From an uncultured Chloroflexia bacterium (GTDB lineage Bacteria > Chloroflexota > Limnocylindria > Limnocylindrales > CSP1-4): DNA of 64,000 nt. The position numbers and the translations under genes were made by a program. Where the stretch lies: positions 32,001 to 96,000 of the forward strand of contig CAVVYR010000006.1 of assembly GCA_963752475.1 (NCBI GenBank), written 5' to 3'. The notes beneath the pieces are model-generated. The model ran no database searches. It saw only the letters and a program-made list of their open reading frames with translations, and was not told the origin of the DNA. Below are positions 2,903 to 6,265 of this stretch, one piece after another. Numbering within the stretch: position 1 is the stretch's first letter; the number at the start of each line of letters is the position of its first letter.

Positions 2903-3720
2903 TTGCTGATCGAGCGGTACTTGCGCACTCCCAGCGGGGCGAACACCGCCAACATCACCACCATCCAGCCCATGGTCACCAGGACCGGGTACTCACCCGG
3001 GATGCCCTGGGCCGGGAACGGGTTGGGGTTGCCCCACAACTCTCGCAGCGACGCGGTCAGCGTGCTCACCGGGTTCCAGGCGGCGACCGGCTGGAGCCAG
3101 TCCGGCAGCGTGCCGATGGGCACGAAGACGTTGGACACGAAGGTCAGCGGCAGGATGACGATGAACGAGACCTGCTGGGCGACCTCGACCGACGGCAGCC
3201 GCAGGCCCAGCCAGACCCCCACCCACGACATGACGAAGGCATAGGCCAGGGCGCCACCGATGCCGAGCAGGAGCCCGATGAGGCCGGTGTTCACGGTCCA
3301 GCCCACGACGAAGCCCGAGATCATCAGCACCATGAGGATGCCGCCGTTGTAGATGACGTCCGAGACGGAGCGCCCGAAGAGCACGGCCGAGCGCGCCATG
3401 GGCAGGGAGCGGAAGCGGTCGATGATGCCCTTGTGCAGGTCCTCGGTCATGCCGATGGCGGTGGTGGCCGAGGCGAACGTCAGCGTCTGCACGAAGATGC
3501 CCGGCATCAGGTACTCGGTGTAGCTGGCGCCGCCGGGCAGGGGGATGGCGCCGCCGAACACGACCGAGAACAGCAGCACGAACATGATCGACTGGAGGAT
3601 GGCGAAGATGGCCAGCTCGGGGATGCGCGGGATGCGCTTGAGGTAGCGCCACGTCAGCATCAGCCCGTCGTCGACCGCACCTCGCAGCCCTCGGTCCGCG
3701 GCTGGTGCGGGGGCGCTCAC
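2899..3720 (-). CDS. ABC-2 type (DrrB-like) exporter permease
   Basis: YLMPGIFVQ, GIIDRFRSLPMARSAVLFGR, LPDWLQPVAAWNPVS; GTG start at 3720 formed at the IS110 junction. Confidence 0.9.
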   Translation of the reverse strand: MSAPAPAADRGLRGAVDDGLMLTWRYLKRIPRIPELAIFAILQSIMFVLLFSVVFGGAIPLPGGASYTEYLMPGIFVQTLTFASATTAIGMTEDLHKGIIDRFRSLPMARSAVLFGRSVSDVIYNGGILMVLMISGFVVGWTVNTGLIGLLLGIGGALAYAFVMSWVGVWLGLRLPSVEVAQQVSFIVILPLTFVSNVFVPIGTLPDWLQPVAAWNPVSTLTASLRELWGNPNPFPAQGIPGEYPVLVTMGWMVVMLAVFAPLGVRKYRSISN

Positions 3721-3738
3721 TGGTGCACCCTCTTCCTG

Positions 3739-3940
3739 TCGGTAGTCGCAGATCGACTGCCGATGCACCCGAGGTGCCGTCGGGTCACTGCCCCGCTCGC
3801 TCGAACCTTCGAGGTCCAGCATGAGTTCCGCAGGACCCGGCGGTCATCCGGGACGCCGTGACCGTCGACAGGGCTGTGCGCCATGGCCATCACCGGCCGG
3901 GAGCGCCGATCAGTGAGCTGACAGGCAGATGCGTCCCGGC
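3739..3940 (+). ncRNA. Putative IS110 bridge RNA
   Basis: 5' hairpin 3739-3763; target arm 3777-3843 containing GCATGAG; donor arm 3848-3939 containing ACAGGGCT and CAGTGAG, matching the element's junction sequences. Confidence 0.75.
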
Positions 3941-3989
3941 ACCGAGATGCGGGTGCCTCCCCACTGGGATCAGCAGCGAGGAGGCTGAC

Positions 3990-5258
3990 ATGCAGTCTGC
4001 CAGTATCACCCCGAGTCGGGGCTCGTCCGACCAGCCCGTCAGCGTCGCCGTCACCGGTGGCGTGGACTGGGCCAGCGCCGATCATGCCGTGGCCGTCGTC
4101 GACGACGATGGCCGCCAGCTCGCCCGCGAGCGCGTCGAGCACACCGCCGCGGGCCTGCGGGCGATGGTGCGGTTCCTGGCCGATCATGGCGTGGCCGAGG
4201 TCGCCATCGAGCGTGGCGACGGCCCGGTGGTCGAGGCCCTGCTCGACGCCGGGCTGACCGTCGTCGTCATCAGCCCCAACCAGCTCAAGGGCCTCCGTTC
4301 GCGCTACGGCTCGGCCGGCAACAAGGACGACCGCTTCGACGCCTTCGTGCTCGCCGACACCCTGCGCACCGACCGGGCCCGGCTTCGCCCGCTGACCCAG
4401 GACACCGAGGCCACGCGGACCCTGCGCGCCACCGTGCGGGCCCGTCGCGACCTGGTCAGGCACCGCGTCGCGGTGTGCAACCAGCTTCGCGCCCACCTGC
4501 AGGCCACCTTCCCCGGCGTGGTCGGCCTGTTCGCAGAGCTGGACTCGCCGATCAGCCTGGCCTTCCTGGCCCGCTTCGACTCCCAGGCACGTGCCGACTG
4601 GCTCTCCCCCGGGCGGCTGGCGGCCTGGCTGGCCAGCGTCGGCTACAGCGGCCGCAAGGACCCCGCCGACCTCCATGCCCGACTGCAGGCCGCACCCCGG
4701 GGCCCGGTCGGACCCGACGGTGCCGCCCGGGCCCATGTCACCCGCGCCCTGCTCAGCGTGCTCGACGGCCTGGTCGAGCAGATCGGGACCCTCGAGGCGC
4801 AGATCACCGAGCAGCTCGCCCTTCACGCCGACGCCCACATCTTCCGGTCCCTGCCCCGCAGCGGCACCGTCCGCGCCGCCCGGCTGCTCGCCGAGATCGG
4901 CGACGTCCGCGCCCGCTTCCCCGACGCCGCCTCCCTGGCCTGCCTGGCCGGCGTCGCGCCCTCGACCAGACAGTCCGGCAAGCACCGAGCCGTCACGTTC
5001 CGCTGGGCGGTCGACAAGGAGCTCCGCGACGCGGTCTGCGACTTCGCCGGCGACTCCCGACGCGCCAACCCCTGGGCCGCGAAGATCTACGACGACGCCA
5101 TCGCCCGGGGCAAGGACCACCCCCACGCGACCCGCATCCTGGCCCGTGCCTGGCTCGGCGTGATCTGGCGCTGCTGGCAGGATGACGCCGCCTACGAACC
5201 CGCCCGACACCACGCCCTCCAGGCCATGCAGGACACCGCCATGGCGGCCCAGGGTTGA
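3990..5258 (+). CDS. IS110 family transposase/recombinase (DEDD RuvC-like + Tnp20)
   Basis: GGVDWAS, VAIE, NKDDRFDA (DEDD) and GVAPSTRQSG (catalytic Ser); GAGGAGG RBS before ATG 3990. Confidence 0.95.
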   Translation: MQSASITPSRGSSDQPVSVAVTGGVDWASADHAVAVVDDDGRQLARERVEHTAAGLRAMVRFLADHGVAEVAIERGDGPVVEALLDAGLTVVVISPNQLKGLRSRYGSAGNKDDRFDAFVLADTLRTDRARLRPLTQDTEATRTLRATVRARRDLVRHRVAVCNQLRAHLQATFPGVVGLFAELDSPISLAFLARFDSQARADWLSPGRLAAWLASVGYSGRKDPADLHARLQAAPRGPVGPDGAARAHVTRALLSVLDGLVEQIGTLEAQITEQLALHADAHIFRSLPRSGTVRAARLLAEIGDVRARFPDAASLACLAGVAPSTRQSGKHRAVTFRWAVDKELRDAVCDFAGDSRRANPWAAKIYDDAIARGKDHPHATRILARAWLGVIWRCWQDDAAYEPARHHALQAMQDTAMAAQG

Positions 5259-5269
5259 CACAGGGCTAC

Positions 5270-6265
<996 letters not shown>

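Follow-up and report, generated by a model that had tools for sequence, protein, structure and literature searches.

A recently mobile IS110-group insertion sequence with a probable bridge RNA in its left end from an uncultured Chloroflexia bacterium

The element, its edges and its recombinase

The stretch of DNA considered here (the window) comprises 64,000 nucleotides from an uncultured Chloroflexia bacterium (GenBank assembly GCA_963752475.1, contig CAVVYR010000006.1, positions 32,001 to 96,000 of the forward strand). Within it, two genes on the minus strand, one for an ABC ATPase (5270-6265) and one for an ABC-2 permease (2899 to ~3722), are separated by an IS110-group insertion sequence with a length of 1553 bp (window 3716-5270). 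The element consists of a non-coding left end of 272 nt (3718-3989), a recombinase gene on the plus strand (3990-5258), and a right end that extends 10 nt past the stop codon; it has no terminal inverted repeats, and a CT core dinucleotide stands at both junctions (3716-3717 and 5269-5270). The bridge-RNA mechanism was described in 2024. A first-pass annotation of the locus, made from the letters alone, had read the left end as a bispecific bridge RNA, and all of the strings on which it drew are present where it placed them. The evidence set out below makes it very probable that the element was recently mobile and that its left end encodes a bridge RNA guiding the recombinase.

The recombinase gene begins with an ATG at 3990, behind the Shine-Dalgarno sequence GAGGAGG (3978-3984), and encodes 422 aa. 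Its product matches both PF01548 (RuvC-like DEDD domain, E 2.1e-36) and PF02371 (Tnp domain, E 1.2e-18), and it scores 180 bits against the NCBIfam model NF033542, 'IS110 family RNA-guided transposase', for which the cut-off is 140. Its sole relative among PDB structures is the IS621 recombinase (chain 8wt6_A, E 1.9e-8). In the alignment of the two proteins, D11, E60, D102, D105, and S241 of IS621 face D26, E74, D114, D117, and S329 (numbered from the ATG at 3990), with the motifs GVD, AIE, NKDDRFD, and QSG of the recombinase facing IS621 motifs; the roles of the D/E/D/D/S catalytic residues are taken from the account of IS621 in PMC11208158. A tblastn search against plasmids returned matches labelled generically 'IS110 family transposase', the best of them at 77% identity.

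The site is laid out as a target, GGGGGCG-CT-CATGCC, into which an element that starts with CACTGG at 3718 and ends with ACAGGGCTA at 5268 has been placed. The left target (LT; GGGGGCG, 3709-3715) is host DNA in which codons 2-4 of the minus-strand ABC-2 permease gene lie. The right target (RT; CATGC, 5271-5275), also host DNA, complements the permease start ATG and overlaps the stop codon of the ABC ATPase gene. On the element side, the right donor (RD; CACTG, 3718-3722) is formed by the first element bases and the left donor (LD; ACAGGGCTA, 5260-5268) by the last. The left target and both copies of the core are fixed by empty sites in relatives and by an empty allele. Sixteen of 17 same-genus loci could be anchored at the orthologous operon (L021 gave no match), and the element was found in none of them; the closest ones (L007, L008, L009, L011, and L012) read G-(C/T)T-CATG uninterrupted. 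The empty site L108, which is orthologous to the second copy of the element in this genome, runs from the left flank through CT into the right flank for more than 30 bases. In addition, a contig from the DNA run X1 represents an empty allele in which 3715 is joined to 5269 and exactly 1553 bases are skipped, at a depth of 6.3 against about 16 in the flanks. Each junction holds two CTs, and three of the four possible core placements were rejected, as the empty sites fit only CT at 3716-3717 combined with CT at 5269-5270.

Two full copies are present in the genome and are 100% identical to each other; together with the occurrence of an empty allele beside a filled one, this argues for recent mobility. 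The X1 contig without the element occurs beside filled junctions, i.e., the insertion is polymorphic in the sampled population, and loose ends at 5275-5276 in the same run place the element beside at least one more right flank that is absent from the assembly. A third copy, L003 (G000:C6:339362-340430), is 5'-truncated and lacks everything to the left of window-equivalent position 4215. It carries a one-base deletion in the LD of its right end and, like the full copies, lies at a start codon behind a Shine-Dalgarno sequence.

The fold and the guides of the left-end RNA

Homologs were collected in a tblastn-confirmed scan with one genome per species, which provided 80 loci, mostly from Actinomycetota, with recombinases 67-93% identical; those of L028 and L029, which stem from Nocardioides isolates, are 82% and 78% identical. 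Many of these loci lie on short contigs without flanks, and the loci are mutually related, so that the permutation counts given below overstate independence. The left ends of the homologs can be aligned over their full length, and the 65 distinct ones formed the alignment for the fold. The RNAalifold consensus, curated to 51 pairs in seven helices, comprises a 5' stem-loop, a closing helix, and the outer stems and hairpin of a target-binding arm and of a donor-binding arm. Standard pairs occupy 98.6% of the 3295 cells (65 left ends, 51 pairs), and 33 of the 51 pairs show changes on both sides (287 cells). None of 500 column shuffles reached any of the five measures applied, and when the partners were slid by 1-3 columns as a control, pairing fell to only 35-43% of cells. 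The single-sequence fold is mildly better than that of shuffles (z = -3.0), and the weight of the fold evidence lies in the covariation. Folding together with homologous IS110 ends was one of the checks that the first-pass annotation had proposed, and these figures answer it in favor of the fold.

From 5' to 3', the RNA begins with the stem-loop at 3738-3764 (3738-3747 with 3755-3764; 10 pairs, 8 changed on both sides), which the annotation had placed at 3739-3763. It is followed by the 5' strand of the closing helix, GCACCC (3765-3770), which pairs with GGGTGC at 3951-3956 (6 pairs, 2 changed on both sides); RNAalifold and covariation also support the 3' strand. The target-binding arm spans 3776-3844 and is built from 3776-3786/3834-3844 and 3788-3791/3830-3833 (15 pairs, 10 changed on both sides), with an outer helix one pair longer than the stem 3777-3786/3834-3843 reported before. 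Inside it stands a hairpin, 3803-3806/3813-3816, with 4 pairs, 3 of them with changes. The donor-binding arm (3848-3939) has its outer stem exactly where it had been drawn, at 3848-3856/3931-3939 (9 pairs, 7 changed on both sides), together with a short stem at 3862-3864/3923-3925, and encloses an inner hairpin stem, 3878-3881/3903-3906, with 4 pairs, 1 with changes. A search of 3300-5700 against Rfam found no relevant family up to E = 10; four chance matches lay far below their gathering scores. In six left ends (L065, L070, L083, L090, L093, and L099), an extra 39-43 nt directly follows the left tip (alignment columns 8-50) and resembles a duplication of the tip and 5' stem-loop region.

The right target guide (RTG) links this RNA to its insertion sites. 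The 3' side of the target loop reads CA-GCAUGAG-U, and the GCAUGAG within it (3819-3825) is reverse-complementary, at all seven positions, to the core CT followed by the RT CATGC; this complementarity between GCATGAG and CTCATGC (5269-5275) had been pointed out in the annotation. Among the homologs, the five bases before the GAG of the RTG occur in about 20 settings, and the flanking DNA follows. Sixty-eight loci have both an RTG and at least 6 flank bases, and in the 66 unique locus/flank pairs that they yield, a mean of 4.92 of 6 positions is Watson-Crick paired. The summed score of 325, compared with a permuted mean of 200 (sd 7.7), was reached by none of 10000 permutations. The sixth RTG position pairs only where the RNA carries G there. 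Covariation between loop and insertion site, another check that had been suggested, is thus found for the RTG.

A second link is given by the base that follows. The target loop has its handshake base at 3826, a U that can pair with the final element base, A5268 (donor position 7); these two positions are complementary in 71 of 74 loci (U:A 47, A:T 23, G:C 1; 3 mismatches). No pattern was seen among loci for a second handshake base. These two links also bear on the idea that the left end is only a 5' leader regulating translation of the recombinase, with target complementarity as a by-product of the similarity between the target and the element end. The RNA probably does continue into the recombinase mRNA, no terminator being found between 3956 and 3990, and the target CT-CATGC and the donor CT-CACTG are alike in their first four bases. 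However, right targets as different as those beginning CTTAG, CTACC, CGTTC, and GGGAG are met by RTGs ending CUAAGAG, GGUAGAG, GAACGAG, and CUCCCAG, and the handshake covariation would have no role in a leader. A leader function alone is therefore highly improbable, and the bridge-RNA reading is retained.

On the donor side, the left donor guide (LDG; ACAGGGCU, 3868-3875) is identical to 5260-5267 at 8 of 8 positions. For the right donor guide (RDG), CAGUGAG at 3911-3917, the sequence matched in reverse complement, at 7 of 7 positions, consists of the core CT and the RD CACTG. The annotation had noted the latter match between CAGTGAG and CTCACTG (3716-3722); the matched string is not flank but is made up of the core CT and the five bases with which the element itself begins, which fits the assignment of this loop to the donor. 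For the former, it had proposed a longer match of the left donor loop to the right end with two wobbles. The identity of ACAGGGCT at 3868-3875 to 5260-5267 stands, and the two wobble pairs, 3876-3877 with 5268-5269, do not, because the RNA base after GGGCU stays G in homologs and does not follow donor position 7, which is A in 43 loci, T in 23, and C in 2 out of 74. The LDG pairs with 5260-5267, and position 5268 is read by the target-loop handshake base. The C at 3918 after the RDG is the donor-loop handshake base and is complementary to target position 7 (G3715), with C facing G in 67 of 69 loci.

Both donor guides are nearly invariant in the family, and the LDG is fully Watson-Crick paired (8/8) in 65 of 74 loci. 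Changes in LDG or LD were found in 14 loci, of which 5 are compensated (L048, L072, L085, L103, and L083), 4 give a wobble, 4 are broken, and 1 (L065) is misaligned; a single compensated change of RDG and RD, which supports the RD, occurs in L054. In L064, the motif TTGACACAGGGC of the right end is duplicated in tandem before the junction. Because both donor-side matches lie within the element and are nearly invariant, they look as repeats bound by a protein would look, and it can be asked whether CAGTGAG, as an inverted copy of the left tip, and ACAGGGCT, as a direct copy of the right tip, are subterminal transposase-binding sites acting as DNA, the fold being incidental. Yet the DNA matched by the RTG lies outside the element, and guide and DNA vary together over about 20 target pentamers, the stems keep pairing through compensatory changes that only an RNA-level constraint explains, and the protein belongs to a family shown to be RNA-guided. 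DNA-level binding sites are accordingly a very unlikely explanation of the repeats. In 200000 mononucleotide shuffles of 3723-3989, the three guide-DNA matches arose singly in 2887, 2815, and 1025 shuffles and together in none.

The left target guide (LTG) segment, CCGCTCGCT (3793-3801), lies on the 5' side of the target loop and contains 7 guide bases plus the core CU. As in IS621, this side is a 9-nt segment ending CU, followed by one linker base and the hairpin. The register is fixed by relatives with divergent LTGs: in 18 such loci, the left flank is matched at 4.78 of 7 positions, a value reached in 0 of 10000 permutations. An alternative register with the core at 3796-3797 was rejected, as the conserved CT is 3800-3801 and the divergent relatives match their flanks only there. 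A match to the LTG further upstream in the left flank was also sought, and no enrichment was found at any offset from 1 to 29. In the present copy, the left guide matches only CG plus CT, as had been observed before. The description of the guides as short on the left and long on the right holds for the effective pairing in this copy, whereas the full 9-nt LTG segment is present and tracks the left target in divergent relatives; what is short here is the LTG match, not the LTG itself.

Several further features of the LTG were seen among the relatives. A sub-clade consisting of L068, L070, L083, L087, L089, L090, L094, and L099 has LTGs that end UUGUCG-CU or UAGUCG-CU and match the left flanks. 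Its right flanks are alike as well, with CAGAGG or CGGAGG followed by a G-rich run, which suggests that it targets a repeated host sequence rather than start codons; the element-spanning antisense open reading frame (ORF) described in the last section is broken in these elements. The conserved LTG core, GCUCGCU (3795-3801), equals the filled left junction G-CT-CACT (3715-3721) save for one G/A position. Because of this near-identity, it is complementary, with one G-U pair, to AGUGAGC (RDG plus handshake base, 3912-3918). The complementarity may reflect a loop-loop contact, a role in excision, or chance.

Expression, target reading and relation to IS621

In IS621, a junction promoter is rebuilt from the joined ends, with its -35 element in the right end (PMC11208158). 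The right end of the present element holds TTGACA, a perfect -35 hexamer (5255-5260). The recombinase stop codon lies within this hexamer, which points out of the element across the junction; its function is assigned by analogy with IS621. TTGACA starts all 76 right ends that were recovered. Once the ends are joined, it stands 18 nt upstream of the candidate -10 hexamer CACCCT (3726-3731), of which A2 and T6 are at least 90% conserved, and a junction promoter composed of TTGACA and this weak CACCCT would have the RNA begin close to the 5' stem-loop. Parts of the left end are covered by RNA-library contigs, at 3714-4029 (X5), 3745-3929 (X17), and 3774-4013 (X16), i.e., in three libraries from two studies, and one RNA-library contig is identical over 3774-4013. 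In run X5, a related element with a left flank of its own carries C instead of A at 3821, a position within the RTG, and so represents natural variation in the right guide; the right flank of this element was not recovered.

A number of observations weigh against the bridge-RNA reading or against parts of it. Of the six positions of the candidate -10, only 2 and 6 carry the consensus base, and a scan of the linear stretch 3600-4050 detected no promoter, and no terminator inside it. The RNA-library contigs are no proof of transcription, as such libraries can hold DNA and the contigs show no ends. The circle junction was not seen in the contigs of four runs, in which rare forms are dropped. Owing to the near-invariance of the donor guides, their covariation rests on 6 loci, and the permutation tests ignore relatedness among loci. 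Further observations concern the left target, which the LTG matches at only 2 of 7 positions in copy 1 (CG+CU) and at 1 of 7 in copy 2 (G+CU). Across the 43 loci with a consensus LTG (ending GCUCGCU), only position 7 (1.00) and position 6 (0.58) rise above background, with a mean of 3.23 of 7. Moreover, the genome holds 339 GCTCATGC sites, and at four genome sites five LTG bases match together with the core and RT; the element is in none of these four.

These observations on the LTG invite another account, in which the RNA is a true bridge RNA whose LTG is fully used for a rare site, with a left target ending GCTCG, and the insertions that are seen are right-half, 'half-match' events that survived at gene starts. 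Half-match insertion has been reported for IS621 (10.64898/2026.08.31.748434). The LTG consensus is kept in 43 of 61 loci despite non-matching flanks, and at the correct register at least 4 of 5 LTG bases are matched by 10 of 45 flanks, compared with 0-6 at 29 other offsets. This preference is faint at most. By contrast, a full match occurs in 0 of the 43 consensus-LTG loci, and the four genome sites with five LTG bases, core, and RT are all empty. A rare, fully matched site as the proper target of the LTG is thus doubtful, although it is the strongest of the competing accounts. According to the preferred reading, in which the LTG contributes little, the specified target comprises about 8-9 bp, (C)G-CT-CATGC, which on the other strand is GC-ATG-AG-C, a start codon.

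Starting from the edges, the fold, the guide-DNA complementarity with its covariation, the catalytic residues (by alignment), and the insertion polymorphism, all of which are observed, homology with IS621 suggests how junction-promoter transcription, RNA-protein assembly, and strand-exchange chemistry would proceed. The left end would most likely be transcribed after the ends join in a circle, when TTGACA comes to lie 18 nt upstream of the weak -10, giving a bridge RNA of ~220 nt. Its donor loop would hold the joined element ends and its target loop the insertion site, with the LTG adding only its last 1-2 bases and the core to target pairing. The DEDD/Ser recombinase would then exchange strands after the CT core, whereupon the handshake bases would pair with the incoming strands, U3826 with the donor A and C3918 with the target G.

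In IS621, the bridge RNA has two loops, with a nine-base LTG and a four-base RTG, and bridge RNAs are predicted in 85.7% of IS110-group elements (PMC11208160); handshake pairing has been described for IS621 as well (PMC11208158). The two elements share a DEDD RuvC-like domain and a Tnp domain with a catalytic Ser, a long left end, a short right end, and a CT core. They also share the order of a 5' stem-loop, target loop, and donor loop and, in each loop, a same-sense 5' guide and a reverse-complement 3' guide that both include the core. The 9-nt LTG segment with its 1-nt linker and hairpin, the handshake bases after the RTG and RDG, and the -35 in the right end are likewise common to both. Despite these similarities, the protein similarity is very distant (E 1.9e-8), and several details of the RNA differ. 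The RTG pairs 5-6 bases past the core here and 2 in IS621, and the RDG pairs contiguously (7 bp) rather than discontiguously as in IS621. The LDG here ends one base before the core, whereas that of IS621 covers the first core base, and LTG pairing is limited to 1-2 bases past the core. An extra closing helix (3765-3770/3951-3956) is placed around both arms.

The annotation had described the guide arrangement as being unlike that of IS621. This holds insofar as the RTG pairs further than that of IS621 here, but longer RTGs are not new: the RTGs encoded by some natural IS110 orthologues exceed that of IS621 in length, and 7-bp pairing between RTG and RT, including for IS621 itself, occurs and improves specificity (PMC11208160). 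In that source, targets of the longer-RTG orthologues mostly have 0-2 mismatches to LTG plus RTG; the LT here, in contrast, mismatches the LTG at 5-6 of 7 positions. The locus fits the IS621-type bridge-RNA definition in every feature examined save full LTG pairing and a promoter rebuilt across the joined ends, and does not constitute a new class. Its distinctive traits are a 7-8-nt RTG, a contiguous RDG, an LDG one base short of the core, a closing helix, and near-absent left-target pairing. The clade may already be listed in the supplementary tables of PMC11208160. The bispecific bridge-RNA reading itself is borne out by the recombinase family, by a fold with covariation support, and by the covariation of RTG with target and of handshake base with donor.

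Two other lines of work provide points of comparison. IS1111-group seekRNA elements have a recombinase of the same family, and an RNA guides their choice of target (PMC11187229); in that group, as described in PMC11208160, the guide RNA lies in a long right end and the subterminal inverted repeats are long. Membership in the IS1111 group was rejected, given a right end that reaches 10 nt past the stop codon and an RNA in the left end. More recently, CazIS110-1 was reported to integrate mainly by top-strand insertion (bioRxiv 10.1101/2025.10.25.684509), a route that would fit a target read almost wholly by the RTG and the handshake base. Near-absent left-target pairing would likewise fit either the top-strand-led or the half-match insertion of the two preprints.

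Start codons and the antisense frame

In most relatives, the right target begins CAT or CAC, i.e., ATG or GTG on the other strand, and in this genome all three copies lie at a start codon behind a Shine-Dalgarno sequence. Here, a GTG borne by the element (3722-3720, minus strand) restores the permease reading frame. Upstream of it on the minus strand lies a purine-rich stretch, GGAAGAGGG (within 3717-3745), ~9 nt before the GTG; facing out of the element, this stretch could provide the interrupted permease gene with a ribosome-binding site. Across the relatives, 23 of 50 start-like flanks have the complement of a Shine-Dalgarno sequence after the site, compared with 0 of 15 other flanks and 39 of 136 control sites. 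The host frame stays free of stops over 100 codons or more in 27 of 54 loci; for another frame, the figure is 20 of 54. Across relatives, the sites are thus only moderately linked to real gene starts, and the evidence from the reading frame within the element is stronger.

That evidence comes from an antisense ORF of 518 codons (3717-5273, minus strand), which opens at the host ATG (5273-5271), crosses the element in its entirety, and closes with a TGA (3719-3717) overlapping the regenerated GTG (3722-3720). For a survey of this frame, 27 of 82 elements were dropped beforehand, leaving 55 distinct elements with both junctions. The frame is open to the TGA in 38 of 45 elements at a host ATG or GTG and in 1 of 10 at other triplets; that one (L064) proved to have a mis-picked junction, and its true triplet is ATG. 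Among the elements with an open frame, 17 different lengths occur, every one of which leaves a remainder of 2 on division by 3; the remaining two antisense frames are interrupted by at least 5 stops. For the non-coding left end taken by itself, 54 of the 65 distinct sequences fall into one length class modulo 3, over 16 lengths, and the single stop of the antisense frame is its final codon in 52 of 65, compared with stops in 62 of 65 for the sense frame in the phase of the recombinase. GC-rich third positions would lead one to expect an open antisense frame over the recombinase gene, but not the pattern seen in the left end. A Pfam search with the 518-codon antisense product gave no match at E up to 0.1.

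Such an arrangement, an element-spanning antisense ORF that lacks its own start and is fed by a host start codon, resembles that of hed, an antisense ORF of IS900 that is reportedly known since 1997 from the work of Doran et al. In IS900, the antisense ORF spans the whole element without a ribosome-binding site or start codon of its own, and insertion takes place next to host translation-initiation signals, as at the present locus (PMC8141618); the likeness is one of arrangement. A literature search found no publication naming both IS900 and bridge RNA, and a search on IS110 together with bridge RNA found no mention of translational coupling.

From these observations, it can tentatively be proposed that a large actinobacterial clade of IS110 elements evolved insertions that the host can translate straight through, by combining start-codon targeting by the RTG, an open antisense frame, and a GTG restart; this is less probable than the opposite. 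In such a scheme, the right guide, which spells xxx-RUG-AG, would direct the element to a position directly behind a host start codon, the left guide contributing little or nothing, and the whole element, including the DNA of the bridge RNA, would be kept open in the antisense frame. Ribosomes starting at the host ATG would cross the element and stop at the TGA that overlaps the GTG, and the interrupted gene would thereby be restored.

At the level of the family, the locus and its relatives add a high-GC actinobacterial clade to the bridge-RNA systems, represented by about 80 loci in which the RTG takes roughly 20 natural settings and the handshake bases covary clearly. In this clade, the target is set almost entirely by the top-strand guide, which bears on top-strand-only and half-match insertion and on the design of guides for bridge editors. 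If the proposal of read-through insertion is true, the same DNA would serve as a guide RNA on one strand and as a coding or coupling frame on the other, a rare double constraint, and the long-unexplained hed ORF of IS900-type elements would find an explanation. RNA-guided targeting of start codons would, if real, thereby be linked to the hed-type antisense ORF.

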